Positions 24,452-46,940 of a stretch of DNA of 64,000 nt are shown in pieces. Every line of letters begins with the position of its first letter. Position 1 is the stretch's first letter. Source of the DNA: an uncultured Acidobacteriota bacterium. Its GTDB lineage: Bacteria; Acidobacteriota; Blastocatellia; RBC074. The position numbers were made by a program, and so were the translations under genes. The stretch is from NCBI GenBank assembly GCA_963796275.1, contig CAWCKY010000004.1:1-64000 (forward strand), read 5' to 3'. The notes under the pieces are model-generated. The model had not been told where the DNA came from. It saw nothing but the letters and a program-made list of their open reading frames with translations, and searched no databases.

Positions 24452-27400
24452 TTAATGATGTAGCAAGGCGGCCATTCGATTGAGAATCTCGGCAAACATT
24501 GAGCTCGTACTCCACCCATCAGAAATAGCGTGCAACTCCGTCAACGAAAACTGATACGTGTTTTCTGAACGTAGATGCACGTATATTCGCATCAATGGAG
24601 GGCGTGATAACTCAAAAAACCTTTGCTTTTCAGTCTCGACAAAGATATCCAGCGCCTCTTCCTGTTCTTTGTAAGAGAGATGGCGCAGGTCTTTTAAGAC
24701 GATTGGCAAAGAAACTGTTTTATGCACTAACTGTAGCGGTTCGCTGTAGCCGGTGAGATCGAACGAAGTGCGTAACACTGCGTGACGCGCCACAATCTGC
24801 CTCATTGCCTCCTGCATCTCCCGCTCACCGAACTCCCCTCGTATGTGGTAGCTATTGATGTTGTGATAAGCTAAAGAATAGGGAGTTAATTCCAAGTGGT
24901 AGAGCATGCCTGCTTGCAGCATCGTGAGTGGGTATGCGTCCTCGATATCTGCCGGGAGACGCTCCCGATCTACCTGATTGATGAGCCCGAATGGCTCTGT
25001 TCGAATATCAGGTGATCCATGTGATTCGGATAAGGATGACTTTTTGGATAGGTTGGCAATGGTTTGGTGTTCGAATATGTCTTCAACCGTAAAATTGAAT
25101 CCTTTTTCATTTGCCAGCGCCACCACTTTTACACTTCGGATGGAATCACCACCGAGGGCGAAGAAGTTGTCGTAAATTCCAATTTGCTCAAGGCCTAGAA
25201 CCTCAGCCCAGATTGCCGCCAGGACCTCTTCTTCTGAGCTGCGAGGCGCAACATAAGCCTCCTCCGAATCGGGACGCAATTTGCCAGTTTCCGGCAGGGC
25301 GCTACGATCAATCTTGCCATTAGCCGTCAGCGGCATCTCTTCCAGCACCACGATTCTCTCGGGAATCATAAACTCCGGCAGTCTCTCTTCCAGATAAGCT
25401 CTCAATTCTCGACTCTTTACTCGAGCTTCCTCTCCCCTTCTCCTCTCCTCCGACACATATGCCACGATCCGCCTCTCTCCCTTCTCTTCCTGAAACACTA
25501 CTGCCACTTCTCCCACTCCCTCGTGCCGGTTTAGCGTTTCCTCAATCTCTCCCAACTCGATCCGATACCCTTTCAGTTTCACTTGCTGATCTCTACGGCC
25601 CAGATATTCTATTTCTCCGTTCCAGCGGTAGCGCGCCAGGTCGCCCGTTCGATAGAATCGCCCTCCTCCTTCCTCAATATGTGGATTCGGTATGAACTTC
25701 TCTGCCGTCTGATCCGCTCTCCCGACATACCCTCGACACACACCTTCTCCCCCTATGTACAATTCTCCGCTCTCCCCTACTCCGACCGGCTCCTGCTTCT
25801 CGTCTAAGATATAGAGTTTCGTATTAGAGATCGGACGGCCGATCGGCACTGCGCCTTCGATCTCATCCCCAGCTTTCACTTCATACACACAGCAACCAAC
25901 CACCGTTTCGGTAGGGCCATATTCATTGATCAATCGCGTCTCCGGCGCATAGCTTTGCCACTTCCTCAACCGCTCCCCATGGAGAGCCTCTCCGCCGATC
26001 ACCAGCGCGTTGGTCCGTCCACCGAACTCTTCGATTGGTATCCACTGATTCAATACTTCCAGATGCGATGGCGTCAGTTTTACCAAACTCAGAGAATTGA
26101 CTCGCCTCAATGCTGCACTCAGCCCACTTATTCCCTCACTCTCTTTCACCAAAATCAGTCGACCTCCCATCAGTAGCGGCGGATACAGCGCTGTCACCGT
26201 TAGATCAAAGCCCAGCGGCGAATGCAGCAAACTCCCTTCTCCTGCTTCAACTCGATATTCCCGGAGGCTCCAGGCCAGATAATTGCGCAAGCCTCTTTGC
26301 GTGATCATTGTCCCCTTCGGCTGCCCCGTTGATCCCGACGTGTAGATCACGTACGCCAGATTCTCCGCCTCTAACCTTACTCCCAGATTATCCGCTCCAT
26401 GTCTCTCGATTAAACTTCTCTCTCGATCGAGACAGATCACCTCCGCCTCACTTTCGGGTAAGGCTCTCAGCAAATTCTCTTCTGTCAGCACTATCCTCGC
26501 CCCGGCATCTTTGAGCATATAGCTCAACCGCTGCTTCGGATAATTCGCATCTAACGGCACATAAGCCCCCCCTGCTTTCAGCACTCCCAGGAGCGAGATC
26601 ACCATTTCAAATGATCGCTCGAGCAGGATTCCTACCGCCACATCTGGTCCTACCCCTCGTTCCTTCAAGAGCCACGCCAGACGATTGGCTCGCTCATTCA
26701 ACTCGCGATAACTAATCCGTTCGTGAGCAAATTCGATTGCCACACTCTCCGGCGTGCGCTCGACCTGTGATTCGAGCCATTCTGTAATCGATTGCGGCGC
26801 TTCCCACCTGACTTCAGTCTGATTCCACTTATGAAGTTGCTGCTCCCGCTCCCTGGCGCTGACCATAGACAACTCATCTAACCGCCGCTCCGGCCGTGCC
26901 GCAGTGCTCGCGACGATGGTCAAATACTGTTCCGCCAGACGCTCGATCGCTCCTCGTTCATACATTGTCGCGTCATAGCTGAACTCCGCTCGCAATTCCT
27001 TCCCGCGCTTTTCGCACTTCAGCTTCAACTGATAACGATCCACACATGCTGCTTGCCTCATCATCGAAAACGAAACGTTGCCGATACGCAGCGGTTCCGC
27101 ATACTCGGCAAATTCGAAGCCCACCGGGAAGAAATTCACCTTTGCGGTATTCCCGTCATTCTCCGACCATGAAAAACTTTCTTGCCATTTGTAACAGTCG
27201 CGCAAAGATTGACTGACCTGAGTCAGGATTTCATTAAATGTGTTGGTCTTATCAAACTGGCAAGAGACAGGCAGCGTTCTAGTAAATAATCCGAGCGCGC
27301 CTTGTAATTTATCAGGTATTCTCCCATCACATTCGTAACCAATCGTGATCTCGCGCCGCTCTGTGAGCTTCCAGAGCACCGTTTGCCAACAAGCGAGCAG

Positions 27401-28162
27401 GAACTCTTTCTTCAAAATTCCGCATTTCTGCTCAATCGAGTTCAACGCCGCAGTCAGCTCAGAGCCGATGACCAGGCTATGAGACAATAATGTGTTCTCT
27501 GGGTTCTTCTTACCTTCGGCTCTAAAAGGCAGCTTTAATACAGAGCTACTCGACAATTCTCTCTTATTCCAGAATTCTCTACCCGGGATCACGCTTTCCT
27601 GCTGTAACAATTCGTTTTGCCATTCTGCGAGTTGGACATAACTGACCACCTCGCAATCCGTTTCCTGACCTTTAATACAAAGGTCATAGCAATAACCAAT
27701 TTCACGCATTAGATTGTTGAGCGTCTGAGCGTCAGCACACAAAGTCGGAATTGTAAGAAGCAGGAGGTGAGTATTAGAAGGTAGCTTGACCAGACAGACT
27801 TGCAAAAGCGAAGGGCCTTCGAACTTAAAGCTAAGGTTTTTCTCTTCCTCAATTAGCCGCTCGATCTTGGTTTCTCGCTCGCGCGGCTTTACCCCAGTCA
27901 GGTCAAATTCTTTGATGGATGCCTCCGCGGATTCTGCAACTACTTGAAGCGGGGCTTCCATCCCCGGTAAGTCATGAAAGCTTGTGCGCAGAATCTCATG
28001 CCGCTGCACGACTTTCTGTAATGCCGCATCTAAAACAAGCTTATCCAGCTTACCTCTTATCAACACCGCGCATTGTGCGCAATAAGTGGAGTTATACTGC
28101 CGTAACATCCACAACCTCGCTTGGAGACTGGAAAGTCGAAAGCCTTCGATATAATCGTGCAT
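24452..28162 (-). CDS. NRPS: pseudo-C (interface-like), A(Asn), T, N-terminal half of C
   Basis: First C has PTLCADA for HHxxxDG; code read as DLTKVGEVGK; T GGDSI; second C LHAISDG. Confidence 0.9.
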   Translation of the reverse strand: MHDYIEGFRLSSLQARLWMLRQYNSTYCAQCAVLIRGKLDKLVLDAALQKVVQRHEILRTSFHDLPGMEAPLQVVAESAEASIKEFDLTGVKPRERETKIERLIEEEKNLSFKFEGPSLLQVCLVKLPSNTHLLLLTIPTLCADAQTLNNLMREIGYCYDLCIKGQETDCEVVSYVQLAEWQNELLQQESVIPGREFWNKRELSSSSVLKLPFRAEGKKNPENTLLSHSLVIGSELTAALNSIEQKCGILKKEFLLACWQTVLWKLTERREITIGYECDGRIPDKLQGALGLFTRTLPVSCQFDKTNTFNEILTQVSQSLRDCYKWQESFSWSENDGNTAKVNFFPVGFEFAEYAEPLRIGNVSFSMMRQAACVDRYQLKLKCEKRGKELRAEFSYDATMYERGAIERLAEQYLTIVASTAARPERRLDELSMVSAREREQQLHKWNQTEVRWEAPQSITEWLESQVERTPESVAIEFAHERISYRELNERANRLAWLLKERGVGPDVAVGILLERSFEMVISLLGVLKAGGAYVPLDANYPKQRLSYMLKDAGARIVLTEENLLRALPESEAEVICLDRERSLIERHGADNLGVRLEAENLAYVIYTSGSTGQPKGTMITQRGLRNYLAWSLREYRVEAGEGSLLHSPLGFDLTVTALYPPLLMGGRLILVKESEGISGLSAALRRVNSLSLVKLTPSHLEVLNQWIPIEEFGGRTNALVIGGEALHGERLRKWQSYAPETRLINEYGPTETVVGCCVYEVKAGDEIEGAVPIGRPISNTKLYILDEKQEPVGVGESGELYIGGEGVCRGYVGRADQTAEKFIPNPHIEEGGGRFYRTGDLARYRWNGEIEYLGRRDQQVKLKGYRIELGEIEETLNRHEGVGEVAVVFQEEKGERRIVAYVSEERRRGEEARVKSRELRAYLEERLPEFMIPERIVVLEEMPLTANGKIDRSALPETGKLRPDSEEAYVAPRSSEEEVLAAIWAEVLGLEQIGIYDNFFALGGDSIRSVKVVALANEKGFNFTVEDIFEHQTIANLSKKSSLSESHGSPDIRTEPFGLINQVDRERLPADIEDAYPLTMLQAGMLYHLELTPYSLAYHNINSYHIRGEFGEREMQEAMRQIVARHAVLRTSFDLTGYSEPLQLVHKTVSLPIVLKDLRHLSYKEQEEALDIFVETEKQRFFELSRPPLMRIYVHLRSENTYQFSLTELHAISDGWSTSSMFAEILNRMAALLHH

Positions 28163-28379
28163 TTATACCTCCATGACGTAGCACCGCTTTTGATTCTTTG
28201 ATTTCAGCAGAAGTATTGTCGTGATGAATCAGTACTGCCTAGTTCCTTCCGACAAGCTGGCAGACAATGAAATGAGAATTGCAAAGAAGCATCGTTTGCA
28301 GCAATGTTATAATTGCATCTATTTGTAGCCTGGAGCGCACGTGGCTCGAGTACTCTCCAAGATGGGATAATGAGGCGTA

Positions 28380-31300
28380 TCAAATATCGGAATAGGATGA
28401 CATTTCACCCATTGCGACTAACAGTTTCCGTTCTCCTGTAAATGGAGTGCGACCATGCGCCGACAGCATGTTGTCAAGCATGAGCACATCCCACCTCTGC
28501 CATGGGAAACTCACTTCTAATTTCTGGTATATTTCCAGAATTTCTTCCATCACAGAATCTTCGATAACAGAGCCATCGCCGTAATAGCAGTTTCGCGGTA
28601 GGTTTTCCTCTCTGAACAGCGTCCTGAGAGATCCGCGCGTGATTCGGTCCAGGCAGTAAGGATGCCAGAGCTGTGCTTGATTAAACCACACCATCTCTCC
28701 AGTGTGCGGATGTCTACCGACAGCGGGGCGAACGGATCGAGTCACCAATCGATCACCATCTTTCCATTCGAAGTCGATTCTGTCCGCTCGACATCGTCTC
28801 TCGACTTCGGTCTTCGAAGACGTCTGGAAAATCTTTTGCCAGTCCAGCTCGAAGTTATCTCCATAATTTCTGACATACATAACCCCTTTTCGAATAAACT
28901 TTTCCCTAATCGTCAGAGAAATGGACTCGAACACCTTACGGCTATCAACGATTGGCGTTTCCCCCCCTTCATCTGCCGGTTTGGAACAACAGAACCAAAT
29001 TTTCCTTGGCCATTGGTGATTGAATGAGTTTTCGTTATGCCATAGCAATCGCAGATAAGTCGGATAATACACAGGCGTGTAGACGTTGCCGCTAATCGTT
29101 TCGCGCGAATGTTCACCATTTTCGCTGAATAATTCCGGGCAGATCGTTTTGGCGAATCGTTCGAAATCACCCGCCAATGGCAGGCTGAATCCTCGGAAAA
29201 GCAACGCTCCGTGCTTGCCAAGCTCACGCTCAATCAATTCGCGATTGTTCCTGCCCAATTCAATCAAGTCCACGTCTTTAAACCTCGGCTCGATGACTAA
29301 CGGAGCCGAGAAGTCCGGCCGCAACAGGCTGGTCCGCACGATCTTCTCTGCGGACAATTGACCCAATTCAGGTTTAGCGGTTTGGAATCGTTTGAGATTG
29401 TTATCCGCGCGTAAGCTCGCCTCTTCTCTCAATCGCTCTTGTTCGAAGACAACCATCGTTCGTTCGATCTCAGCCATTGAGGCGTGCGGCTGTTCAATAA
29501 CGAACTGCAGGATTCTTTCAAAGAGCTCGCTCAGTCGCATGACGAATGCGGCGTCGAACAAATCCGTGTTGTATTCGATTAATCCTTCGAGCCCGCCTCC
29601 CTTCTCCCAAAACAACAGAGTCAGATCGAATCTCGAAACGTCATTCTTGATGGGAAAACTCGTCAGCGAGAGATTGGTGAGTTCCAGTGGCGGCATCGGG
29701 GCGTTCTGCAAAACCAGTTTCACCTGAAAGATGGGTGAGTATTTCAAGCTTCGCTCCGGCTTCAATACTTCCACCAGTTTATCGAATGGTAAGTCCTGAT
29801 GCGCATATGCATCCAGCGCGACCTCTCGAACACGACGGAGGATTTCCCGAAATGTCGGCTCACCGGAGAGGTCCGTTCGCAAAGCCAGTTGGTTGACAAA
29901 AAAGCCGACCAGGTTTCCAGTTTCAACCCGGTTCCGGTTGGCGATGTCGGTTCCTACCACCAGGTCTTCCTGTCCGCTATAGTGATAGAGCAGGACATTA
30001 AAGGCAGCCAGCAAGGTCATGAAGAGAGTAGCGTTCTCATCGCGACCTAGCTTCTTCATCGCATCGGTCAAGTCTTTTGATATCGCCATCGAGTGTACGG
30101 CTCCGCGAAAGCGCTGCTTTTCCGGGCGCGTCCGATCCGAAGACAATTCCAGCACGGGGGCGGCGCCTTTCAGTTGCCGCTTCCAGTACTCCACCAGGCG
30201 TTCAAGCATTTCGCCTTGCAATTGGGTCCGCTGCCATACGGCGTAATCGCCATATTGAATGGGGAGGTCCGGCAACGGCGCCGGTCGCCCTTCACAGAAG
30301 GCATCGTAAAGCGCTGCCAGCTCTTGCGCGAACACGCCCAACGACCATCCATCAGAGATGATGTGGTGGATGGTTATCAACAGCATATGTTCATCGAGTT
30401 TCAGTCGGAATAATTTGATTCGAAGTAACGGCCCCAAAGACAGGCTGAATGGCTGGCCGGCATCCGCAGCCGCCCGCTGTTGGATATTCTCTTCGATCTC
30501 TATTTCAGACAAGTCGCTCAAGTCTTCCACAGACAGCATCCAAGGTCCGAATCCATCTATCACCTGTACGGGGTCTCCACGCTTGCTGACCAACCTCGTG
30601 CGTAAGCTTTCATGCCGCTTGATGATTTCGCCTAGAGACCGCTCTAGAGCTACGATATCAAGAGCGCCTTTGAGCCGTATCCCGCCGGAAATATTGTTAG
30701 ACGCACTGCCGGGCGATAATTGATCTAAAAACCACAGTCGCTGTTGTGCGAACGAAAGCGGCAGATCTCTATCCCGTGGCACGGCAACGATCGGCGGGGT
30801 GCCCAGAGCGAGGCCGGCCCGGATATCCTCATCAATACTGCTCGCCAACATCGACACCGTGGGGTGCTCGAATAAACGGCGTAATGGCACTTCAATTCGG
30901 AAGGTATTGTGGATCCGCGCAATTACAGTTGTCGCCATCAACGAATGCCCGCCCAGATCGAAGAAATTATCGTGTATCCCCACGCAATTGATACCGAGCA
31001 CTGCCTGCCAGATTCCACATAACAACTCTTCCGTCGGCGTGCGCGGCGTCATCCGCACTTCGTTGGTGACAACCCGATCTGTTCCGATCTCCACTAGGGC
31101 GTTGAGGTCGACTTTGCCGTTCGGCAATAACGGCAGCGAGTCGAGCACGATGATCGCCGAGGGAACCATATGCTCCGGCAGTCTCCGCCGTAACTTCGCT
31201 CGCAGTTCGTTCTCGCTCGGCGCCTCCGTTCCCCCATACACGACATACCCCACCAATCGCGCTCCTTCTTCCCCGCCCTCCCGCACCAACGCCGCACTCT

Positions 31301-33983
31301 GACTCACTCCTCCCTCTTTGCGCAACGCCTGCTCCACCTCCCCCAGTTCGATCCGATGGCCTCGCAGCTTCACCTGATGGTCCGCTCTCCTCAGATACTC
31401 CAACTCTCCCCCCGCTCTTCTCACCACCAGATCTCCCGTCCGGTACAACCTCTCCCCTTTTTCTCCGAACGGATTCGGCACATACCTCTCTGCCGTTGCA
31501 TCAGGATGCCCCAAATAGCCTCGCCCCAATCCTTTTCCTCCCAAGTACAACTCTCCCTCGCATCCCACACCCGCCAGTATCAGTCCATCTTCCAGTACAT
31601 ACGCCTGCATATTAGAGATCGGAAATCCGATCGCCACGCTTCTCTCTTCCCGCCCTTGTTCTCCTTCCCAAGACATCGCATCTATGCATGTCTCCGTCGG
31701 CCCATACAAATTGATCAACGGCGTTTGCTTCAGCGTCTCCCGGAAACGCCTCCACAGATCGATGCTCAGCTTCTCTCCTCCGCTGTATACCCGCTTCAGC
31801 TCACGGCAGTTTTTCATGCCTTCTTCTTCTATCAGAATTCCCAACATTGTCGGCACCACCTGCAGTACGCTTACCTCTTCCTTCTTGATCGTCTCCACCA
31901 GATACCGCGAATCCTGATGCCCTCCCGGCTCAGCCATGATCAAGACTCCCCCGGATAAAAGCGGCGCATAAAACTCCCAGACCGACGCATCAAAGCTGAA
32001 CGGCGTCTTTTGCAGCACTCGATCATCTGCTTCCAGAGGATATTCTTTTTGCATCCACTCCATGTGGTTCCAGATCGCCCCCTGCGTGATCATCACTCCC
32101 TTCGGCTGCCCCGTCGATCCCGAGGTATAGATCACATACGCCAGGTTCTCCTCCGTTACTTCGATTCCCAGGTTCTCTCCATTTTCCTCCTCCAGCCGCA
32201 CCCAATCCCGATCTACACAGATCACCTCTTCAACCCATTCCGGGACAGAACCCAATAACTTCTCCTGCGTTAGCACCACCCCCACTCCCGCATCCTGCAC
32301 CATGTATCTCAACCGCTCGCTCGGATAGCTCGCATCTAGCGGTAAGTAGGCCCCTCCAGCTTTGAGCACGGCCAGCAGCGCCACCACCAGCTCACACGAT
32401 CTCTCCATCTGAACTCCCACTAGCATCTCCGGCCCCACTCCCAATCGCCGCAGCTGTCGCGCCAGACGGTTCGCTCGCTCGTTCAGCTCTCGATAGGTCA
32501 GACTCCCAGAACCATCCTCGATCGCCCTCTTTTCCCCGCTTCGCTCGACTTGCTCTTCAAACCATTCGTGCAGCACACGGAACCTTCCCCATTCGACTGC
32601 CGTTCGATTCCAATTGATCAGCAATTCTTCGCGTATCCCCGATCCGACCAGTTCCAGCTCTCTCCACTCTTTTTCGGCACTGTTCACTGCGCTCCCGACC
32701 ACGCTCAGATATTGTTCGGCGACTCGCTCGATCACGGCTTTCTCGTATCTCGCCCCTTCATACTGCAGCTCAGCGCGGAGCTCTTTCCCTTGCCTTTCAC
32801 ACCACAGCTTGATTTTGAAATTCCCTTCTTTCATTCGTCTCCCGCATACTCTCCAGACCAAGCCACGGCTTCGTTCCTCATCTTCAGCTCTAACGTACTC
32901 GAATCCGTACTCCAATCCTCTTCGCCACTCCGATTCCTCTCGAATGCTCGCCGCCACTCCTCGGAAGCAGTCTTGCCACGTCCGGTGCTCTTCCAGCCTC
33001 TCGCTCGTTTCATGCACTAGATGGCTCAGACTCGCATTGCTCGCTCCCTCAAATCTCATCGGCAGCCAGCGTTCGAATAATCCAAAAGCTCCTTCCAACT
33101 CGACGTCCGTTCTCCCATCGAACCGCACAACCACTGACTTCAGTCTTCCTCCCGTCAACTTCCACAACAGCACTTGCCAGCAAGCCAGCAGCACTGGTTC
33201 CTCACTCGTTCCCAGGATATCGGAGAGTCTCGCCACACCCGCCGCAAGTTCCTTCCCCAGATTTACTCTCACCGGACTCGATTCCCGCTCACGCTCCCAA
33301 CCTTCTACCTCAAGCGCCAGTCGACCGTTGGCTTCCGCTTCCGTCGATTGGCCTCGCCAATAGGCTCGGCCTTCGGACGCTTCCTCGCTCTCCTCCAGTT
33401 CGCGCTGCCACGCCGCATACGCCGCATATTGCACCACATCTGCTTCAGCCTCTTCCATCTCCTTACATCCTTCACGCAGCCTCTCATACCTCCAGGCCAA
33501 CTCACTCATCAGATTGACCCAGCTCTTGCGATCCACGCTCAATCTTGGCAGGCTGAGCAGCAATCTGGTCTCCTGCCTATCTTGACGCTGCAGACAGGCT
33601 TGTAAGGCTGGTTCGCTGCCGTCCACCGCTCCTTCCTCCATCGTCTCGACCACGCGATCGCCCCACGTCGTATCACCAGTCTCACACGCCTCCCGTTCTT
33701 CTCTCCATCCCAAGGCGCAGGATTCGCTCACCACCTGCCACGGCTGACTCATGCCGGCTGAGAGCCGATACCCGGTCCGCAGAATCTGATGCCTGGCCAC
33801 CGTCTCTTCCAACGCTCTTCGCAGTGCTTCGCTCTCGACCTCACCGGTCAGCACGATCTCGCACAATTCGCGCGGTGTCGGCCCAGCCAGCGCCGACAGT
33901 TCCCTCCACGCTTCCAACTGTTGCTGTGAGATCTGGTAGCCGGTTACCGCCTGCTGTTCTATCAATGTACTTTCATCTCCCAT
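28380..33983 (-). CDS. NRPS: pseudo-C, A(Gln), T, C, fused TauD-type hydroxylase
   Basis: First C PRLSVDR; code read as DAWQYGLIDK; HHIISDG; C-terminal WHNENSF..DNMLSAHGR. Confidence 0.92.
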   Translation of the reverse strand: MGDESTLIEQQAVTGYQISQQQLEAWRELSALAGPTPRELCEIVLTGEVESEALRRALEETVARHQILRTGYRLSAGMSQPWQVVSESCALGWREEREACETGDTTWGDRVVETMEEGAVDGSEPALQACLQRQDRQETRLLLSLPRLSVDRKSWVNLMSELAWRYERLREGCKEMEEAEADVVQYAAYAAWQRELEESEEASEGRAYWRGQSTEAEANGRLALEVEGWERERESSPVRVNLGKELAAGVARLSDILGTSEEPVLLACWQVLLWKLTGGRLKSVVVRFDGRTDVELEGAFGLFERWLPMRFEGASNASLSHLVHETSERLEEHRTWQDCFRGVAASIREESEWRRGLEYGFEYVRAEDEERSRGLVWRVCGRRMKEGNFKIKLWCERQGKELRAELQYEGARYEKAVIERVAEQYLSVVGSAVNSAEKEWRELELVGSGIREELLINWNRTAVEWGRFRVLHEWFEEQVERSGEKRAIEDGSGSLTYRELNERANRLARQLRRLGVGPEMLVGVQMERSCELVVALLAVLKAGGAYLPLDASYPSERLRYMVQDAGVGVVLTQEKLLGSVPEWVEEVICVDRDWVRLEEENGENLGIEVTEENLAYVIYTSGSTGQPKGVMITQGAIWNHMEWMQKEYPLEADDRVLQKTPFSFDASVWEFYAPLLSGGVLIMAEPGGHQDSRYLVETIKKEEVSVLQVVPTMLGILIEEEGMKNCRELKRVYSGGEKLSIDLWRRFRETLKQTPLINLYGPTETCIDAMSWEGEQGREERSVAIGFPISNMQAYVLEDGLILAGVGCEGELYLGGKGLGRGYLGHPDATAERYVPNPFGEKGERLYRTGDLVVRRAGGELEYLRRADHQVKLRGHRIELGEVEQALRKEGGVSQSAALVREGGEEGARLVGYVVYGGTEAPSENELRAKLRRRLPEHMVPSAIIVLDSLPLLPNGKVDLNALVEIGTDRVVTNEVRMTPRTPTEELLCGIWQAVLGINCVGIHDNFFDLGGHSLMATTVIARIHNTFRIEVPLRRLFEHPTVSMLASSIDEDIRAGLALGTPPIVAVPRDRDLPLSFAQQRLWFLDQLSPGSASNNISGGIRLKGALDIVALERSLGEIIKRHESLRTRLVSKRGDPVQVIDGFGPWMLSVEDLSDLSEIEIEENIQQRAAADAGQPFSLSLGPLLRIKLFRLKLDEHMLLITIHHIISDGWSLGVFAQELAALYDAFCEGRPAPLPDLPIQYGDYAVWQRTQLQGEMLERLVEYWKRQLKGAAPVLELSSDRTRPEKQRFRGAVHSMAISKDLTDAMKKLGRDENATLFMTLLAAFNVLLYHYSGQEDLVVGTDIANRNRVETGNLVGFFVNQLALRTDLSGEPTFREILRRVREVALDAYAHQDLPFDKLVEVLKPERSLKYSPIFQVKLVLQNAPMPPLELTNLSLTSFPIKNDVSRFDLTLLFWEKGGGLEGLIEYNTDLFDAAFVMRLSELFERILQFVIEQPHASMAEIERTMVVFEQERLREEASLRADNNLKRFQTAKPELGQLSAEKIVRTSLLRPDFSAPLVIEPRFKDVDLIELGRNNRELIERELGKHGALLFRGFSLPLAGDFERFAKTICPELFSENGEHSRETISGNVYTPVYYPTYLRLLWHNENSFNHQWPRKIWFCCSKPADEGGETPIVDSRKVFESISLTIREKFIRKGVMYVRNYGDNFELDWQKIFQTSSKTEVERRCRADRIDFEWKDGDRLVTRSVRPAVGRHPHTGEMVWFNQAQLWHPYCLDRITRGSLRTLFREENLPRNCYYGDGSVIEDSVMEEILEIYQKLEVSFPWQRWDVLMLDNMLSAHGRTPFTGERKLLVAMGEMSSYSDI

Positions 33984-33984
33984 A

Positions 33985-35067
33985 TCAAATGTCCGTCCTT
34001 TCATATGGTTCGGCCATACCGAAAATGATCTTTCTCTCGCCCCTGAATGACCAGCGTCCGTGCGCGGTCAGCATATTGTCGAGAATGATGACGTCGCCGC
34101 GCTCCCACTCGAAGGCCTTGCTGTTTTCCAGATATGCAGCCCTCAACTCGTCCATGACCGGCGCTTCGATCTCGGATCCGTCCCCGTAGTAGGTATTGTT
34201 GGGCAGATCTTCTACTTTGAACTCCGCGAGCAGAGCATTACGGATCGCAGGTAAGAGCGTCGAAATATGAAAGAATGCCACGTGGTTGAACCAAACCTTT
34301 TCGCCGGTTCGTGGATGCTCAACCACGGCCGGTCGTACCTGGCGAGTGCGCAGACGGTCGCCGTCTCTCCATTCACAATCGATGCCGGCTTGGCGGCAAT
34401 ATCTTTCGACTTCGTCTTTTTCAGTGGTTTGAAAAACCGTCTGCCAGGGCAAGCCAAAGCCATTTCCGAAGTTGCGAACATACATCCATTTCTTTTCGAG
34501 AAAGCGTTCTCTGATCTCCGGAGATATACTCCGGAAAATTTTGCGCGTATCGGCAATCGGCGTCCCCCCTCCCTGCTCGGCCGGAATCAAACAACCGAAG
34601 TAAAGCTTCATCGGCAGAGTTTTGGCATAGGAGTGTTCGTTGTGGGGGAAGATATCTTGCTCCGCGGGATAATCGGTCGAGGTATAGACATTACCGATCA
34701 CGCTGCTGCGAGGAGATGAGCGTTCGCGGTACTCCATCACCTCTCCTGAAATCGCTCGGATCAATTGCTCAAACTCATCCGCCGAATTCATCTGAAAATT
34801 CCGGAGGAGAACGGCGCCACTCCGTCGGCACCAGGTTTCGATGAAGTCCCGGTGGTGCGCGGCCCAGTCAATCAGGCGGACCCCTTCGACGGCAGGCTTA
34901 ACGACCAGCGGGAGTGTGCCGTCGGCATCGAGGTATTCCGTATAAATCAGGCACTCCTCCAGCATGTTGACAGCTTTGGGCTGCGCCATTTTTCCCCGCG
35001 AAGCCCATAAGCTCTGTTTCTCCGGATCCTTCCTTTGTTCAGCACTCATTGCCATCCCTCCCGTCAA
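33985..35067 (-). CDS. Standalone TauD/SyrP-like Fe(II)/2OG beta-hydroxylase
   Basis: PHNEHSY, GGGTPIAD, WFNH, DNMLTAHGR. Confidence 0.9.
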   Translation of the reverse strand: MTGGMAMSAEQRKDPEKQSLWASRGKMAQPKAVNMLEECLIYTEYLDADGTLPLVVKPAVEGVRLIDWAAHHRDFIETWCRRSGAVLLRNFQMNSADEFEQLIRAISGEVMEYRERSSPRSSVIGNVYTSTDYPAEQDIFPHNEHSYAKTLPMKLYFGCLIPAEQGGGTPIADTRKIFRSISPEIRERFLEKKWMYVRNFGNGFGLPWQTVFQTTEKDEVERYCRQAGIDCEWRDGDRLRTRQVRPAVVEHPRTGEKVWFNHVAFFHISTLLPAIRNALLAEFKVEDLPNNTYYGDGSEIEAPVMDELRAAYLENSKAFEWERGDVIILDNMLTAHGRWSFRGERKIIFGMAEPYERTDI

Positions 35068-39875: not shown

Positions 39876-41492
39876 CTATCTTCCGGAAGCATCGGCTTCG
39901 AGGTAAGTGTCGAATCGCCCAAATAGGCGTTGAGCATCTAGGAATCCTGCTTCACGAGCCTTTTGAATCAGTTTATTGGCCTCTTTAATTTGAATAGATT
40001 CTTCTGACAACCCTAATCCCATGCCGTACTGGAACCACGGCTCACTTCCCATGGCATATATATATACCCGCTTTCCGCCGACCGCCTCGAGCAGCGCCCA
40101 TGCAGCTTTTGCGTTGCTGCCTTTCGTCCGTCTACTAATGTCATGATCGTGTTGAATCCTGGATGGGAGTAATGCCCCATAAAGCCATGAAAGCGGCGCG
40201 CCCACACATTCCATCCCCAAAAAAACAGTTTCAATATCGCCGATCGATCGACGAAGATGTTCGTATAGTCGCCGGTCGAGACAATTAGAGTCAGCCGCGA
40301 ATAAAATGCTCTCCTTTCCAATGCGAATGGCATATGCGCTCTTGCCGTGAGGGAGATCGGCATGCTCTCCTAAAAACGGGACGGCGATGATTTCACCATT
40401 TGGCAGCTCAATCGACTCCAGAGAATCCAACTCGATCACATTTTTAAATCCTATCTGATAGGCCAGCAGTTTCAGCGAAGGATCCGTGTAGAACAGGCTG
40501 AAGTTCTTTGGTACAACCAGGCAGTCGATGCGATGCCGCAAGCGAAGCAGCGTTTCAGGAACAAAGTGATCATGATGGGCGTGTGTAATGAGCGCGAAGT
40601 CAATCTTCTTTGGCAACTCTCGATAGGTGATACGCTCTAATCCGCCGTCTCGAGGCATAACCCCAACCCAGGGATCGGTCATGATAGAGATTCCATTCCA
40701 TTCGACCAAGACACAGGCATGTCCCAGATACCTGATGCGGAGCTTCGGTTCTCGCCACGGTTCAAGTGGCATATTGTGCTCTGACGATAAAAACGGCAGA
40801 AGCGCCTCTTCCTGCCGCTGACCGAGCTCCAGCACTTCGCGAATATGACCCAGAGGTCGCGGCGAGAGCTCAATCCTGAAGAGTTCATCTATCTCCGGGC
40901 TTTCGAATGATACTCGCCAGTCGATTTCATCTTCGTTGAGTAAATGCGGCGTGCTCAGGAAAAAGGGCCGCGAATTATCTCGCTGAACCATAAAAAAACG
41001 CAGTGACTGGAGTATTCTGTTATAGTAAGGGCTTGCGTAAAGCAACCCTTCCATCAGACGTAGAATCGGGTGATTGTAGTAATCGTAGACTAACTCTGTG
41101 TAACCGCGAAGACACTCAGATAATCTCTCATAAAAAGGCTCGAGGCTTTGCCCCTTCGCTTCGTGCGCCAGGCACTCATAAGCTTCGGTGATAGCCTTTG
41201 CCAATTCGAGGTTAGAATACTGGCGTTGCATTGAGCCGAGTAATGCCCGAACCTCATCTGCGCGCTCCAATGGCGCGTCAACAAAAGGTCCACCAACTAG
41301 CCTCGGGTTTTGGCAGGCCTTGATGTGGATCTCTGGATTTTCCATGTAAGACGAGAGAGTCTTGATCTGATAATGCCTCAGATGCATGCTGTAGGGAGCC
41401 GGGGCAATCAAATCCGACCACACGGCCCATTGATTAATTAACGGCTCGACCACAGTTGAATCCGCAAGACGATATGTTGTTTGGGATGACAC
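39876..41492 (-). CDS. CmlA-like diiron MBL-fold beta-hydroxylase 2
   Basis: EPLINQW, GGPF, THAHHDH, FLGEHADL, AADS; GTG start after GGAGG. Confidence 0.85.
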   Translation of the reverse strand: MSSQTTYRLADSTVVEPLINQWAVWSDLIAPAPYSMHLRHYQIKTLSSYMENPEIHIKACQNPRLVGGPFVDAPLERADEVRALLGSMQRQYSNLELAKAITEAYECLAHEAKGQSLEPFYERLSECLRGYTELVYDYYNHPILRLMEGLLYASPYYNRILQSLRFFMVQRDNSRPFFLSTPHLLNEDEIDWRVSFESPEIDELFRIELSPRPLGHIREVLELGQRQEEALLPFLSSEHNMPLEPWREPKLRIRYLGHACVLVEWNGISIMTDPWVGVMPRDGGLERITYRELPKKIDFALITHAHHDHFVPETLLRLRHRIDCLVVPKNFSLFYTDPSLKLLAYQIGFKNVIELDSLESIELPNGEIIAVPFLGEHADLPHGKSAYAIRIGKESILFAADSNCLDRRLYEHLRRSIGDIETVFLGMECVGAPLSWLYGALLPSRIQHDHDISRRTKGSNAKAAWALLEAVGGKRVYIYAMGSEPWFQYGMGLGLSEESIQIKEANKLIQKAREAGFLDAQRLFGRFDTYLEADASGR

Positions 41493-41623
41493 TTCTCCTC
41501 CTCTACCGCATTTCTTTGCTGTTAACAACTAGATGTATTAACGCCTCGATAATGGTTTCTCTAATAGGCTTCGCAATAGGCTCTTGCGCAGAGAGAAGGC
41601 GGACCAAGAGATGGGGTTGGCGA

Positions 41624-43216
41624 TCAATGCGCATAAAGAATTTCCTTCTGCCCGAAGAGTCTCTCAGCTTTAATCCCCTTGCTGGCACAGCTTTTCAACA
41701 ACATGTTCGAGGAAACTATTTGCTTAGATTGCTCCGTGTATTTGAGGCTCATTATGTATGTCAACCATGGTTCCTGCCCCATAGCATAGACATATACCTC
41801 CTCACAGCCTAGTTGATTTACTATTCCCATAGCCTGGTCGTAGTCTGAGCCGGATAGCTTTCTGGAGTGGTCCATCTTCCTGTCTACGGGCCTGGTTATC
41901 AGCGGTCCATACAACCATGTTAAAGGCGCGCCATCGCATTCCATGCCTAGGAAGAGCACATCGACTCTTCCCATCAGTGAAAATATGTGCGCGTACAGTT
42001 TGGGCTCGATATTTGCTGAATCCGCGGCAAACATAAATGATTTGCCATTGAGATTGATCAGGTGTGCGATCTTACTGTTGATGCTCAAATCTGCATGCTC
42101 GCCTAAAAAGGGTATACCGGTTATCGTTCCTCCAGTAATATCAATAACCTCCAGCGGTTCGATCTCCCTAACATCCTTGAATCCGACATTTTGAAAGACC
42201 AGCTTGAGGGAGGGGTCCTGGAGAGAGCCACCTCCACTTCTGGGCAATATGACCGTCTTAACCTTATGCTTCAACTGCAACAATGATTCCAACATAATGT
42301 GGTCTTGATGCCCGTGCGTGATTAGTACGTAGTCTACAACCTCCGGCAGGTCGCGGAACGTAAAGCGTGGGATACCATTGTCGTAGGCGTAGCTGAGCAA
42401 TGGATCGATAAGTATGAAGACGTTCTTAGTCTCTACAGAGATACAAGCATGGCCGTAATACCGCAGTCTGACGCCATCGTTAGTGTAGCGCGAGCGTTCC
42501 GGCGGAGCTTCTTCGGTTAAGAACGTTTGAAACAGAGTCATATCTTCTGGTTGTAGTTTCAGTAGCTCGTTAATGTAGCCGATCGGTTGGGGATAGCTTC
42601 TCATCTTAAATAATTCATCAATAGCACGGTGAGCGAAAGGTATTTGCAATAGCAATGACCCGGGATTCGGCAGTCTTGGCGTGCTCAGCGCGAAGCCGCG
42701 GTAATCATCGTTGATAAGCGATAAGGATAGACTCTGCGACGAGGGATTATAATACTTACTCTTGTAGAGCAGCCCTTCTATGAATTTGATGGACGGGTTG
42801 TCATTCAGGTCGTATACCAACTCGACGTATCCCTTCAGGCATTCGGGGACCTGCAGATACAAAGGTTCAATGCAATAGCCATTCGCCTGAGACCTCAAAA
42901 GGGAGTCAACGGCCCGGGTCGAATCGGCAAAATCGATCATGTGGCTATGTTCTTTGAGCGTCTTATTCAGCAGGGCTTCTATCTCATTGACTCGTTCGCC
43001 TTGGTAGTCAATGAACGGGCCGCCAAGCAATGCCGGGCTCTTGACCGCTTTGGCATGAACTTGAGGTGCGGAAATGTAGGACTTCATTATTTTGATATGC
43101 TGATTGGCGATATTCATCGCCGCCGCCGCGGGGGCGATTAAATGGGACCATGCATACCACTGGTTGAATAATGGTTCCATCAGAACATTTTGCTTTAGGT
43201 AATGCCTTGTTGCCAT
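41624..43216 (-). CDS. CmlA-like diiron MBL-fold beta-hydroxylase 1
   Basis: EPLFNQWYAW, LLGGPF, THGHQDH, FLGEHADL, YAMGQEPW. Confidence 0.88.
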   Translation of the reverse strand: MATRHYLKQNVLMEPLFNQWYAWSHLIAPAAAAMNIANQHIKIMKSYISAPQVHAKAVKSPALLGGPFIDYQGERVNEIEALLNKTLKEHSHMIDFADSTRAVDSLLRSQANGYCIEPLYLQVPECLKGYVELVYDLNDNPSIKFIEGLLYKSKYYNPSSQSLSLSLINDDYRGFALSTPRLPNPGSLLLQIPFAHRAIDELFKMRSYPQPIGYINELLKLQPEDMTLFQTFLTEEAPPERSRYTNDGVRLRYYGHACISVETKNVFILIDPLLSYAYDNGIPRFTFRDLPEVVDYVLITHGHQDHIMLESLLQLKHKVKTVILPRSGGGSLQDPSLKLVFQNVGFKDVREIEPLEVIDITGGTITGIPFLGEHADLSINSKIAHLINLNGKSFMFAADSANIEPKLYAHIFSLMGRVDVLFLGMECDGAPLTWLYGPLITRPVDRKMDHSRKLSGSDYDQAMGIVNQLGCEEVYVYAMGQEPWLTYIMSLKYTEQSKQIVSSNMLLKSCASKGIKAERLFGQKEILYAH

Positions 43217-43412
43217 TGATATCTCCTAAGGTCTCATCCGGCCATAGGCAAGGAGTTCCCAGCCACCGAACCGTTCGGCGCGAATACCAGTGCCGCAGTT
43301 TTGTATAACTGAAGGTTGTGAGAATGAGAGAAAAAAAGACAGATCGATCGCGGTACGATCCCAGGTAGAATCACAATTCAAACGCCAGCCCAAACCCAAG
43401 CATTGGGTTGCT

Positions 43413-46400
43413 TCACTGTCGCCCAAGACCGGACAAATTACTGATGAGATTTTCAAAATCCCTTTGGCTTAATTCCGCCTCGGGGAAATCGCTAACGGCG
43501 AGGCCTCCGCTTTCAGTTCCAGTCAAGAGTTGGAGGGCTGATAAAAGTTGATCAGGATTGTTGACTATGCTCTCCAACAATCGCTGGTATTTCCCGGTCA
43601 TCCCAGCAATCGTCTCTCGCTCAAAGAGATTGACGTTATACTTGAACGAACAACTCAATCCTTCTTCGATCTCTTCCATGGTCAGGATTAGTTCGAATTC
43701 TGCCGTTTCGTTGTCTATCGGAAGCAAGCTGACCTCAAGTTCTCCAAGCTTCAATGATGGTATCGGCGCGTTTTGTAACACGCACAAAATCTGGATAAAC
43801 GGCGTCTGAGTCAATCCCCGCTCGGGATGCAAAGCTTCGACAACCTTTCCAAATGGGACATGCTGATGAGCAATTGCGTCAATCGTGATCTCCCTAACAC
43901 GTCCAAGCAATTCACGGAAGCTCGGGTCGCCTGATAAATCAATACGCAACGGTAACAAATTGACGAAAAAGCCGATCAGGCCTTCTGTCTCAGAAAGATT
44001 GCGGTTTGCGACGTCGGTGCCGACGATAAGGTCTTCTTGTCCGGTATAACGATAGAGGAGTGTTTGGAATGCCGCGAGCAACGTCATAAACAATGTCGCC
44101 CCTTCTCGCTGACTCAAATCCTTGAGACCCTCAGTTATAGCAATCGGCAATACAAACCGTTCGCACGCTCCCTGGATGCCCATTTTGCCGTGATGCGCTC
44201 GGTCGAACGGAAGTTTCGTTACCAAAGGAGCCCCGGCCAACTGGCGCTGCCAGTAAGCAAGTTGCGATTCCAACACCTCCCCCTGGAGCCAATCGCGCTG
44301 CCAGACGGAATAGTCGCCATACTGGATCGCCAATTCCGGCAATGGCGAAGGCATCTTAGATGAGAAGGCTTCATATAACGTCGCCAATTCATGGACCAAC
44401 ACGCCCATCGACCACCCGTCGCAAGCAATATGGTGAATCGTTATAACCAACACATGCTCTTCTTCATCGAGCCGTAATAACCGCGCCCTCATCAGTGGAC
44501 CATTGGATAAATCGAAAGGTTGTCTGACCTCTATCGTCGTTTGTTGTAAAGCAACCGACATGCGGTTGGTTTCCAGTTCTATATTCAGGTTGATTATATG
44601 TAGGTTCACCGGCGTTGCTTTCCCGACCACCTGAACCGGTCGTCCGGCCAATGATGTATATGTGGTTCGCAAAGATTCGTGACGCCTCACGATCTCATTG
44701 AGCGTCAGCTGCAACGCATCCATGTTCAGCCTTCCCCTAATGAGAAGTGCTCCAGGCAGGTTATAGGCGATATTGCCCGGCTCCAGTTGTTCAATGAACC
44801 AGAGGCGTTCCTGAGCGAATGAAAGCGGCAGATCTGGACCACGCTCCGCCGGCTTTATCGGAGGAACCTGCGTTTGCCTCGTGCTCTTTACTCGATCAAT
44901 ACACTCTGACAGGCTGGCGATGGTCGGATGCTCAAACAGTTGGCGGAACATCAGGTCTATCCCAAGAATGTCGCGCAGATGCGAGATCAGCCTCGAGGCG
45001 AGTAACGAATCCCCGCCGAGGGAAAAAAAGTTATCATGCCTACCGATACTCTCCACACCCAGTACTTTAGTCCATAACACTGTCAGCGATCTCTCGGAAG
45101 GGCTGATCGCCAGGCCACGGTTAGTGATCCGGGATCGAGTCCGCTCACCTCTGCTTATGCTACTTGACAATATTTCCAAGAGATCTACTTTTCGAATAAC
45201 ATCCAGACTACCATTCAGAAACCTCTCCATTGTTGCGCGCCGTTGTATCTTCCCGCTGGATGTCTTGCTAATCGAGCCCGGTTTAATCAGGACAACCTGG
45301 TGCACTTGTATCTCGTGCTCTTCCGCGATTGCCTCATATATTCTCCACACAATCTCATCATCATCCAGATTCCGGATTGCAGATCGCTCCAGCTCCTGTA
45401 CGATTACTAGTTGCTCCTCTCCATCCACTTCAATTGTGAACGCAGTTCCGCATCCCGCTCTGAGCGCCGGATCACTTCGTTCCGCCGTCAACTCAATATC
45501 CTGCGGATGATGATTTCGCCCTCGAATGATGATCAAATCCTTCAAACGGCCAATAATGTAAAGGTTCTCCTCCAAGGTGAATCCCAGATCACCCGTTCGA
45601 AGGAATCGCGTCTTGTCCCATCCAGTCAGTCGTGCGTTGAACGTTCGTTCTGTCTCCTCAGGGCGATCCCAATATCCATGGGCAACGCTCGGACCTGACA
45701 GCCAGATTTCGCCGACTTGTCCCTCCTGGCATTCGATTAAAGATTGGGGGTCTGCAATGACGAGTCTCTGTCCGCCATAGACCTTTCCGCAACTAACTAG
45801 GGTCCTGGTTCCTATGTCGTTTTGTGAGGCGAGAACAACTCGATTGTCTTCAAGGGCTGACTTCTGAACCTGACAAATGACGGGGCCGGAACTCGGTCGT
45901 GATGCGGTCACCGCCAGCGTTGCTTCGGCAAGTCCATACCCTGAAAACAATCCCTCGCGACGGAATCCGCACTCTTCGAAAGCTTTTGCAAACCGCTCTA
46001 ACGTATCATAACGAATTGGTTCGGAACCGTTGAAGGCCACTTTCCAACTACTCAGGTCCAGCTTCGCTCGTTCTTTCCGAGTGATCCTGTGAACACAAAG
46101 ATCATAAGCGAAATTCGGGCCGCCGCTAATCGTGGCCTGGTAGCGATTGATGGCCTGCAGCCAACGGACGGGGCGCTGGAGAAAGGCCGCCGGTGACATA
46201 AAGACGCAAGAAGCACCGCTATAAACCGCCTGCAGCGCGTTACCAATGAGTCCCATATCGTGATAAAGCGGCAGCCAACAGACGATCACACTCTGCTCCG
46301 AGACTTCATATGCCTCTTGTAACACTCCCTCATTGTGAAGCAGGTTTCCGTGACTCACCATGACACCCTTTGGCACAGAGGTCGACCCGGATGTGTACTG

Positions 46401-46940
46401 AAGGAAAGCCAGATCACCGCTCGTAAGTTGTGGGCGCGTCCACCGCTCGGTCCATTTAGATCGAGGATCATTAATGATGGTATCTGTGGCCAGCCATAGG
46501 GGTGGCTTCAAGCCCGGAGAGCGTTCGAAGTGTCGCTCGAAACCCGACAAGACTTGAGCTGTGGTCAATGTAGCCATTGCCTCAGTATCTGTGATAATTG
46601 CTTGCAGTCGCGTCAAGTTTCGATTGTGCCGAGGTGGGTACGCCGGAACGGCCACTGCTCCCGCATACAAACAACCGAAGAATGTACTCAGATAATCCAA
46701 TCCTGGAGGATAGAATAGAAGGATGCGCTGTCCGGAAGCTCCCATAGACTGTAGCCAGGCGCCAAGCGCCCGCGCTTGTTGATCCAGTTCCCGGTAAGTC
46801 AGGCACCCGTTTTCTTCTTCTCCTTCAATCAGGAACCTATAGGCAATTCTCTCCGGTTGATGCTCCGCCCTGCGCTGCAGAAGCTCCACCAGTGTCGCCG
46901 CGTTGAATGGCGAGCAATTAACGTCGGTCGAATATTTCAT
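43413..46940 (-). CDS. Lipoinitiation protein FAAL-ACP-C
   Basis: AFLQYTSGST, WLPLYHDMGLIG, GYGLAEATL, ACP GGDSLL, C HHIACDG. Confidence 0.92.
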   Translation of the reverse strand: MKYSTDVNCSPFNAATLVELLQRRAEHQPERIAYRFLIEGEEENGCLTYRELDQQARALGAWLQSMGASGQRILLFYPPGLDYLSTFFGCLYAGAVAVPAYPPRHNRNLTRLQAIITDTEAMATLTTAQVLSGFERHFERSPGLKPPLWLATDTIINDPRSKWTERWTRPQLTSGDLAFLQYTSGSTSVPKGVMVSHGNLLHNEGVLQEAYEVSEQSVIVCWLPLYHDMGLIGNALQAVYSGASCVFMSPAAFLQRPVRWLQAINRYQATISGGPNFAYDLCVHRITRKERAKLDLSSWKVAFNGSEPIRYDTLERFAKAFEECGFRREGLFSGYGLAEATLAVTASRPSSGPVICQVQKSALEDNRVVLASQNDIGTRTLVSCGKVYGGQRLVIADPQSLIECQEGQVGEIWLSGPSVAHGYWDRPEETERTFNARLTGWDKTRFLRTGDLGFTLEENLYIIGRLKDLIIIRGRNHHPQDIELTAERSDPALRAGCGTAFTIEVDGEEQLVIVQELERSAIRNLDDDEIVWRIYEAIAEEHEIQVHQVVLIKPGSISKTSSGKIQRRATMERFLNGSLDVIRKVDLLEILSSSISRGERTRSRITNRGLAISPSERSLTVLWTKVLGVESIGRHDNFFSLGGDSLLASRLISHLRDILGIDLMFRQLFEHPTIASLSECIDRVKSTRQTQVPPIKPAERGPDLPLSFAQERLWFIEQLEPGNIAYNLPGALLIRGRLNMDALQLTLNEIVRRHESLRTTYTSLAGRPVQVVGKATPVNLHIINLNIELETNRMSVALQQTTIEVRQPFDLSNGPLMRARLLRLDEEEHVLVITIHHIACDGWSMGVLVHELATLYEAFSSKMPSPLPELAIQYGDYSVWQRDWLQGEVLESQLAYWQRQLAGAPLVTKLPFDRAHHGKMGIQGACERFVLPIAITEGLKDLSQREGATLFMTLLAAFQTLLYRYTGQEDLIVGTDVANRNLSETEGLIGFFVNLLPLRIDLSGDPSFRELLGRVREITIDAIAHQHVPFGKVVEALHPERGLTQTPFIQILCVLQNAPIPSLKLGELEVSLLPIDNETAEFELILTMEEIEEGLSCSFKYNVNLFERETIAGMTGKYQRLLESIVNNPDQLLSALQLLTGTESGGLAVSDFPEAELSQRDFENLISNLSGLGRQ

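Follow-up and report, generated by a model that had tools for sequence, protein, structure and literature searches.

The system described here is a nonribosomal peptide synthetase (NRPS) cluster in the first 64,000 nucleotides of contig CAWCKY010000004.1 (assembly GCA_963796275.1, an uncultured Acidobacteriota bacterium). This stretch, hereafter the window, corresponds to contig C4:1-64000 of a genome of 9.46 Mb in 7 contigs. At three consecutive protein boundaries of the assembly line, a protein ends in a condensation (C) domain, one or two hydroxylases are encoded or fused at the break, and the next protein begins with a C-like domain without the HHxxxDG motif (pseudo-C). This pattern, noticed in a preliminary description of the window, was confirmed with the open reading frames (ORFs), Pfam and the motif coordinates. 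The three pseudo-C domains had been taken as one kind, but in trees of 454 and 474 domains they fall into two separate lineages. Those of hand-offs 2 and 3 (g6_N and g7_N) group with domains found in the context of interface domains and stand next to TauD-type hydroxylases, whereas that of hand-off 1 (g4_N) is a decayed DCL-type C domain placed after two CmlA-type diiron hydroxylases.

From 16 kb to 53 kb every large ORF is on the minus strand, and the order according to Pfam is FAAL-T-C, CmlA, CmlA, pseudoC-A-T-C, TauD, pseudoC-A-T-C-TauD and pseudoC-A-T-C (A, adenylation; T, thiolation; Table 1). The stand-alone, fused and diiron enzymes of the preliminary description were thus all recovered by Pfam, as the TauD protein g5, the C-TauD fusion of g6 and the CmlA proteins g2 and g3. 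Its statement that an active C domain precedes each break stands in so far as all three retain the second His, although the one of g4 reads PH and not HH. The g5 and g6 genes overlap by 20 bases at the g6 start.

The three pseudo-C domains match the full profile of the Condensation fold in Pfam, with 220.7 bits for g4_N (profile positions 2-456 of 456), 126.4 for g6_N and 209.7 for g7_N, and the alignment columns of HHxxxDG read HGLLLDR, PRLSVDR and PTLCADA, respectively. The fold and the loss of the motif, both expected of interface domains, are therefore common to the three. The position typical of these domains, at the N-terminus of an NRPS, before an A domain and after C plus TauD, is occupied by g6_N and g7_N; g4_N has the same layout, but its neighbouring enzymes are of CmlA type.

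For the phylogeny, relatives were collected with g4_N (293 proteins at E <= 1e-5 among 8000 scored candidates) and with g7_N (1605 among 7997). A first tree was built with 454 near-full-length C-like domains from the listed relatives and the cluster, and a second one with 474 domains, in which those following C-TauD fusions in Burkholderiaceae were added; the interface lineage was anchored by gene context, not by a curated set such as NaPDoS or an antiSMASH profile. In these trees g6_N and g7_N pair as sisters (support 0.91-0.97) and belong to a clade of 123 domains (support 1.0) that are all N-terminal and never show HHxxxDG; the motif there mostly reads P[AS]LCAD (PALCADA 23 times, PSLCADA 16 times). 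No close relative of g7_N was found among solved structures (best E 6e-26). In contrast, g4_N does not group with the interface-context domains and nests in a clade where 61 of the 66 domains keep HHxxxD[GA] (support 0.929 in the 474-domain tree), with P0009 (HGLLMDE) and P0079 (SSLLIDD) as neighbours. As many members of this clade come directly after an epimerization (E)-like domain of the same protein, the clade was assigned to the DCL type. The best matches of g4_N in the PDB were McyB (8hlk, 1e-75) and PvdL, with TycB, bacitracin synthase 3 and SrfA-C further down. Pyoverdine synthetases among the g4_N matches were also considered as references and discarded, as they match through internal active domains (YTSHHILMDGWS) and not through interface domains.

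Two contexts anchor the 123-domain clade. In Burkholderiaceae, a search with the g6 TauD domain gave matches in 39 of 151 genomes, and all eight matches in ORFs of at least 1520 residues were examined. In the eight cases a C-TauD fusion is followed by an NRPS gene that opens with a weakly scoring C-like domain and A-T, and these domains lack the second His (HPLAADG in four, HPLALDG, HALAIDG, SRLVADE and RAWLFDE). They form a clade of their own (0.997) that is sister to the 123-domain clade (0.993). When g7_N itself was used as the query in this family, 2 of 150 genomes matched, at about 1e-39 and with nothing but ordinary C-like domains. The other anchor is the N-terminus of BAU16061 (plasmid AP017310.1), 33.9% identical to g7_N and encoded directly downstream of a TauD gene. 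BAU16061 is CcsL of the cyanochelin B cluster, which PMC12628792 describes as Asp-specific, preceded by the free-standing hydroxylase CcsK and responsible for a β-OH-Asp in the solved structure. Its N-terminal domain reads PSLCADA, and its top matches are members of the 123-domain clade (40-44% identity). Because of this placement and of both anchors, g6_N and g7_N are assigned as interface domains, whereas g4_N is a decayed DCL-type C domain and no interface domain. The C-domain phylogeny suggested in the preliminary description thus upholds the proposed pairing of interface domain and TauD for hand-offs 2 and 3, where the gene context agrees, and not for hand-off 1, as g4_N is nested among active HHxxxDG domains.

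The regularity of the interface/TauD cassette was followed in 19 interface-type domains with readable upstream DNA: seven from this genome, seven from three other genomes of the phylum, four from the loci L003, L140, L141 and L146 (the last three assigned by motif only) and that of CcsL. The phylum sample consisted of 301 genomes, four of which, including this one, matched at E <= 1e-60 with five candidates scored per genome; the interface domains of L069 and L143, at contig edges without upstream DNA, were excluded. A C-terminated ORF was found upstream of 18 of the 19 domains. TauD, fused or free, was the nearest recognised upstream domain in 13, in one of which (PSLCADN, contig C6) the distance is 2.6 kb and two ORFs that match no Pfam family intervene, and CmlA was directly upstream of none.

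A six-frame scan of this genome with hidden Markov models from the cluster's own domains revealed 67 full-length C-like domains, of which eight are without the second His; all eight are found at ORF N-termini. The same scan gave only five TauD and two CmlA units, all within two NRPS clusters. The second cluster (G000:C6:126000-230000) is a hybrid polyketide synthase (PKS)/NRPS system of about 100 kb with five interface-clade domains (PSICADA, PALCADA, SALCADR, PSLCADA and PSLCADN) and three TauD units. Therefore, the threefold iteration pointed out in the preliminary description is present, but the repetition of interface cassettes in the window is not special; other Acidobacteriota contigs carry two interface-clade domains each. 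In the C6 cluster, one interface domain comes directly after a full reducing PKS module, and carbamoyltransferase, OTCase, PALP and OCD genes are also present. A further arrangement was seen in L140 and L146, and also in L141 and L143, where a stand-alone DCL-type C has HF in place of HH (HFIVMDG, HFIIIDG) and in the next gene A-T is preceded by no more than the C-terminal half of a C domain. This boundary represents another kind of degenerate junction.

Regarding the hydroxylases, g2 and g3 both combine CmlA_N with a metallo-β-lactamase fold that carries HxHxDH, as is proper to the CmlA type, and the His, Asp and Glu columns are invariant in an alignment of 38 CmlA sequences. The two proteins are 40% identical and fall in different CmlA subgroups; the closest relatives of g2 (64% identity) are found at L001-L005, in metagenome-assembled genomes of Pyrinomonadaceae, so that the source bacterium is probably an acidobacterium of this group, and those of g3 at L069 (61%) and L074 (56%). 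The TauD protein g5 and the fused TauD of g6 are 45% identical over 335 residues and belong to the TauD type, with HNE...AHGR aligned in both; these residues presumably correspond to the iron ligands (His/acid...His). The g6 domain is 41-45% identical to NRPS-associated TauD proteins of Burkholderiaceae. Both families look intact, as far as their motifs indicate.

The surroundings of CmlA genes were surveyed in the best 80 of 238 relatives from public genomes. Actinomycetota copies are mostly located beside A-T(-TE) units (TE, thioesterase), and those of Pseudomonadota and Acidobacteriota usually at a break between T and C. In 20 of the 80 mapped loci an NRPS ORF lies within 2.5 kb downstream of the CmlA gene, and it opens with a C domain that keeps both His in 11 of them, with A in five, with half a C domain in two (L009, L069) and with TauD and FAAL in one each. 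Among 401 sampled genomes, CmlA was present in four, this one included. At five proteobacterial loci (L056, L075, L076, L079 and L080), a CmlA homologue lies between NRPS genes and the adjoining A domains have the code DSALIAEVWK, which we take to be His-like; this suggests diiron β-hydroxylation of His at these loci.

One other case of CmlA with a full-length dead DCL-type C was found, in the metagenome locus L145. There, a CmlA gene is followed by C-like(DPLILDE)-A(Asn-like)-T-C-A(DVENIGAITK)-T-C and then by C-like(HRLILDS)-A(Asn-like), and the two dead domains both have their nearest relatives among active DCL-type domains. The His pair of DCL-type pseudo-C domains is changed to HG in g4 and P0009 and to DP and HR in L145. 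In P0009, the closest relative of g4, the pseudoC-A-T-C architecture, the HG change and the A code DVENIGAITK all recur. Since P0009 is 45.5% identical to g4 in the pseudo-C and 62-64% in A, T and C, with HG kept in both, the pseudo-C of g4 is best described as relaxed but retained. The contig of P0009 was not recovered in a metagenome scan seeded with g4_N, P0009 and P0079.

No description of a dead C-fold adaptor for a diiron hydroxylase was found in the literature searched, from which subscription journals were largely absent, and none appears in the passages on diiron hydroxylases of the hypeptin (PMC8252469) and marinocyclin papers. Hand-off 1 would then be an unreported look-alike built from other parts, a decayed DCL-type C and two diiron enzymes. 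The pairing of each pseudo-C with its hydroxylase had been proposed for structure prediction; for g4_N (residues 1-445) with the g3 CmlA, a complex prediction run without controls gave scores of 0.01 and 0.00, with the mark at 0.32, which speaks neither for nor against binding.

The specificity codes of the cluster were anchored by hand, as were those of the interface-domain modules, and read DVENIGAITK (g4), DAWQYGLIDK (g6), DLTKVGEVGK (g7), DLFNNALTYK (g8) and DILQLGVIWK (g9). The preliminary description had assigned modules 1 to 3 to Arg, Gln and Asn. The codes agree with Gln for g6 and with Asn for g7, whose code we take to be Asn-like, whereas Arg, or a basic residue in general, is for DVENIGAITK an assumption of ours, as are Ala for g8 and Gly for g9. 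The code of g6 is one residue apart from the Gln code DAWQFGLIDK published in PMC8313283. This Gln reference was the only result of a literature search for the window codes, in which no paper with any of the five was found. In the interface clade, the code could be read in 117 of the 123 modules and is Asp-like in 51, Gln-like in 20, Asn-like in 15 and DSKDLG[VL]VDK in 14.

An in-frame TAA (24452-24454, in the context cat cat taa ccc gtg) interrupts the C domain that follows the T domain of g7, so that position 24452, the lower bound given in the preliminary description, is no normal gene end and falls within a domain, between its two lobes. With the stop read as X, this domain matches McyA (8jbr, 5.4e-113, 381 bits) and AmbE (7r9x, 4.5e-51, 177 bits) best. 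McyB (8hlk), also a C domain, comes near AmbE (1.1e-48, 169 bits), PvdL reaches about 108 bits and the C domains of surfactin, bacitracin and tyrocidine synthetases fewer, all of these staying at about 3e-30 or weaker. The domain is thus closest to AmbE and McyA, as expected of the CmodAA subfamily, an assignment based on these match scores, but it is not encoded as an intact single polypeptide. The position of the stop is occupied by Lys in the McyA alignment, and a GTG two codons past it is listed as the following start, with no evident ribosome-binding site before it. Genome-wide, 14 NRPS A, C or T domains on contigs C1, C2, C4 and C6 are distributed over neighbouring ORFs, through a frameshift in 12 cases, and among the 14 no in-frame stop other than the TAA between g7 and g8 interrupts a contiguous domain. 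The splits may reflect either assembly indel errors or a widespread decay of NRPS genes, and for the TAA itself a real nonsense mutation and a sequence error cannot be told apart; a search for the source reads found one soil run, containing 0.04 of the sampled words.

We consider it fairly likely that the first three elongation modules are split between their C and A domains, with a dead C-fold adaptor at each break. This explanation builds on the observed architecture, motifs, lineages, recurrent contexts and intact metal motifs, from which we infer the binding, the order of events, the substrates and the product. The working C domain at the end of the upstream protein would act in trans, while the dead C-fold domain would stay in front of A in the downstream protein, with the hydroxylase encoded or fused at the break. 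The amino acid would be loaded on the downstream T domain and would stay there, since the adjacent C-fold is without the catalytic His and could not use it up in cis. The residue could then be β-hydroxylated on the carrier and joined to the chain by the upstream C, the dead domain serving as an adaptor or docking platform for this C domain, the hydroxylase and the T domain. In modules 2 (Gln-like) and 3 (Asn-like), genuine interface domains would operate with the TauD enzymes of g5 and of the g6 fusion, and the two CmlA-type hydroxylases would work in module 1, whose code DVENIGAITK probably stands for a basic residue, together with a DCL-type C that decayed independently. As the chain next meets a CmodAA-type C domain, the β-hydroxy-Asn of module 3 would probably be dehydrated to a dehydro residue, if that domain is intact. 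The third hydroxylation may thus be cryptic because of this dehydrating domain, or the line may be broken there. As part of this explanation, and judged together with it, the assembly line would be a five-amino-acid lipopeptide NRPS, with a predicted product acyl-X(OH)-Gln(OH)-Asn(OH or dehydro)-Ala-Gly.

Published systems offer parallels for several of these steps. At the FAAL-ACP-C-Ox / I-A-PCP junction of myxoglucamide, condensation needs hydroxylation and hydroxylation is complete only with condensation; a TauD-type domain at the C-terminus β-hydroxylates Glu on the carrier, a step that is coupled to the condensation carried out by the upstream C (PMC13638107). The same paper cites an analogous TauD-type β-hydroxylation before dehydration in AMB biosynthesis, and a structural study of AmbE under the title of a 'dehydrating condensation domain'.

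Several observations weigh against this explanation. The myxoglucamide interface domain was dispensable in vitro (PMC13638107), so that the dead domain may recruit no hydroxylase at all, and the characterised diiron hydroxylases covered in the hypeptin paper use plain A-T or C-A-T constructs without an adaptor (PMC8252469). TauD is not directly upstream of six of the 19 interface-type domains, three of them in this genome. A full-length His-less C domain opens none of the 20 NRPS ORFs found downstream of CmlA, and the pattern of CmlA and His-less C is absent from the three further Acidobacteriota genomes with CmlA. The L145 locus came from a query seeded with g4_N, a biased sample that gives no frequency. 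Besides, the explanation does not account for two CmlA genes at a single module, and the TAA may mean that the line is broken after module 3.

The main rival, which we hold to be rather unlikely, sees the dead C-folds as structural stand-ins that keep the C:A platform and dock the upstream C, with hydroxylases that find the T domain by themselves; under the same estimate, hydroxylase genes would lie at the break simply since the break gives time for tailoring of the loaded carrier. It agrees with the C-terminated ORF being a more constant upstream neighbour than TauD (18 against 13 of 19), with N-terminal elements trimmed to the C-terminal lobe after CmlA in L009 and L069, in the latter also after a C-TauD fusion, and with the dispensable interface domain and the plain hypeptin modules mentioned above. 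However, the interface domain of glidomide is indispensable for its stand-alone hydroxylase, as cited in the myxoglucamide work (PMC13638107), and the codes of the interface clade are almost only of Asp, Asn, Glu, Gln and His types, which links the domain to hydroxylation and not to general docking. The need for the interface domain thus differs between the two systems, its role being shown in that paper to vary with context, and the refuting case named in the preliminary description, hydroxylases active without the pseudo-C, has come out both ways in published work. For hand-off 1 alone, g4_N could be a recently inactivated relic without function, its adjacency to CmlA being coincidental and CmlA acting directly on the T domain of g4 or on another one. 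The faster evolution of g4_N with respect to the rest of the protein would fit, as would its active DCL-type relatives and the CmlA gene of L074, after which comes an N-terminal DCL-type C with an intact HHLLLDG. This is nevertheless improbable in our view, as P0009 argues for selection, having kept the domain at full length and with Gly in place of the same His despite an identity of no more than 45.5%, and a second, independently decayed example lies directly after the CmlA gene in L145.

Least probable of all, and hardly to be expected, is that the whole cluster is a decaying pseudogene array whose arrangement has no present function. The in-frame TAA without an evident ribosome-binding site before the next GTG and the split NRPS domains of the genome would speak for it, but all the other ORFs of the cluster are intact over ~29 kb and the frameshifts elsewhere may be assembly errors. 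Returning to the adaptor explanation, an extension of it would be that DCL-type C domains at split C/A junctions, in which the His has been lost repeatedly, form a second, convergent class of interface domains, adaptors dedicated to CmlA in the way that the classical clade serves TauD enzymes. We put this forward tentatively, as an idea with a somewhat smaller chance of being right than wrong.

Table 1. Features of the NRPS cluster and its neighbours in the window (Pfam domains, E-values of Pfam matches, hand-anchored codes).
Feature	Position	Strand	Composition, motif or match
FHA-GAF sigma-54 activator	53651-55696		
NusG-like paralogue	52597-53169		
Arginine deiminase/DDAH-fold protein	46951-47739	-	Directly upstream of g1; ADI E 3.3e-11, DDAH_eukar E 3.1e-10
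g1	43413-46940	-	FAAL-T-C lipo-initiation protein; AMP-binding, DIP2-like AMP domain, PP-binding, Condensation
g1 C domain	~43491-44855	-	HHIACDG 44415-44435
g2	41624-43216	-	CmlA-type non-heme diiron hydroxylase; CmlA_N E 6e-94, Lactamase_B_2
g3	39876-41528	-	CmlA-type non-heme diiron hydroxylase; CmlA_N E 4.4e-78, metallo-β-lactamase fold
g4	35173-39813	-	C-like-A-T-C
g4_N, pseudo-C	38467-39810	-	YHGLLLDR 39370-39393
g4 remainder	35173-38433	-	A (DVENIGAITK), T, C
g4 C-terminal C domain	35248-36612	-	PHIISDG 36172-36192, second His retained
g5	33985-35067	-	Stand-alone TauD-type Fe/2-oxoglutarate hydroxylase; TauD E 1.3e-45
g6	28380-34004	-	C-like-A-T-C-TauD
g6_N, interface domain	32613-33962	-	PRLSVDR 33528-33548
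g6 remainder	28380-32579	-	A (DAWQYGLIDK), T, C, fused TauD
g6 C domain	29427-30788	-	HHIISDG 30348-30368
g6 fused TauD	28410-29276	-	TauD E 6.3e-43
g7	24452-28162	-	C-like-A-T and first part of C domain
g7_N, interface domain	26828-28162	-	PTLCADA 27728-27748
g7 A and T	25046-26794	-	A (DLTKVGEVGK), T
CmodAA-like C domain	23516-24958	-	Spans g7 end and g8 start; LHAISDG 24515-24535
g8	21704-24448	-	Rest of CmodAA-like C domain, A-T
g8 A and T	21704-23482	-	A (DLFNNALTYK), T
g9	17624-21661	-	C (HHIISDG)-A (DILQLGVIWK)-T-TE termination module
MbtH-like ORF	16362-16952	-	MbtH E 9e-22

Upstream of g1 in transcription order, Pfam identifies a NusG-like gene, an M28 peptidase, an ABC exporter and the arginine deiminase/DDAH-fold gene, whose product may modify a guanidino residue of module 1. 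The NusG-like paralogue and the FHA-GAF sigma-54 activator adjoin each other just upstream of the cluster and are possible cluster-specific transcription factors. At the other end, the MbtH-like ORF is probably the 3' edge of the cluster; its MbtH-like domain comprises residues 7-56 of 196, and the remainder has no Pfam match.

With three versions of a hand-off in one operon, namely free TauD plus interface domain, fused TauD plus interface domain and two diiron enzymes plus an unrelated dead C, the cluster lends itself as a small natural experiment on the role of the dead domain, which might bring in the enzyme, dock the upstream C or do no more than hold back condensation. In genome mining, N-terminal C domains without the His should be classified by their lineage instead of being treated as one group; the P[AS]LCAD clade marks hydroxylation of the TauD type in modules for Asp, Asn, Glu, Gln and His, and this far outside the siderophores as well. 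If the class of CmlA-dedicated adaptors proves true, a dead C domain plus a trans oxygenase would be a general design rule of assembly lines that can be re-invented, and it would provide a genomic marker for diiron hydroxylases, whose recognition of modules lacks an explanation.

The interface domain with its TauD-type β-hydroxylase was reportedly defined by Reitz and co-workers in PNAS in 2019, as citing papers have it. The cassette is annotated by antiSMASH 8 (PMC12230676), and hand-offs 2 and 3 are ordinary members of it. They have the layout of cyanochelin B (CcsK/CcsL, CcsFGH/CcsI), glidomide (GlmF) and myxoglucamide (MxgA/MxgB) in common, in which C or C-TauD ends one NRPS and the next opens with a His-less C-fold before the A domain of the hydroxylated residue, and g6_N and g7_N share a lineage with the N-terminal domain of CcsL and the Burkholderiaceae domains. 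Differences are found in the residues, Gln-like and Asn-like here and Asp, His and Glu in the interface systems treated in the passages available, although Gln-like and Asn-like codes are frequent among uncharacterised members of the clade (20 and 15 of 123), and in the product, no obvious siderophore.

The g2 and g3 proteins have the same build of CmlA_N and metallo-β-lactamase fold with HxHxDH as CmlA/CmlP, HynC of hypeptin, FrsH and the teicoplanin enzyme, a family that, according to PMC8252469, hydroxylates T-bound amino acids. The characterised members operate on ordinary A-T or C-A-T modules, whereas here two paralogues are located at a break between C and a decayed DCL-type pseudo-C; how trans-acting hydroxylases choose their carrier in multi-module NRPSs is described as an open question by the hypeptin authors (PMC8252469). 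Among the CmodAA domains, AmbE (7r9x) and the N-terminal C of McyA (8jbr) are the best matches of the C domain after module 3, which differs from them in following an interface/TauD module with an Asn-like code and in its interruption by a TAA. Finally, the X domain of glycopeptide NRPSs has a degenerate C/E fold and brings in P450 Oxy enzymes. It stands at the end of the last module and serves another oxygenase family; the likeness is one of logic: a dead member of the C superfamily as a platform for trans oxygenases on carrier-bound substrates.

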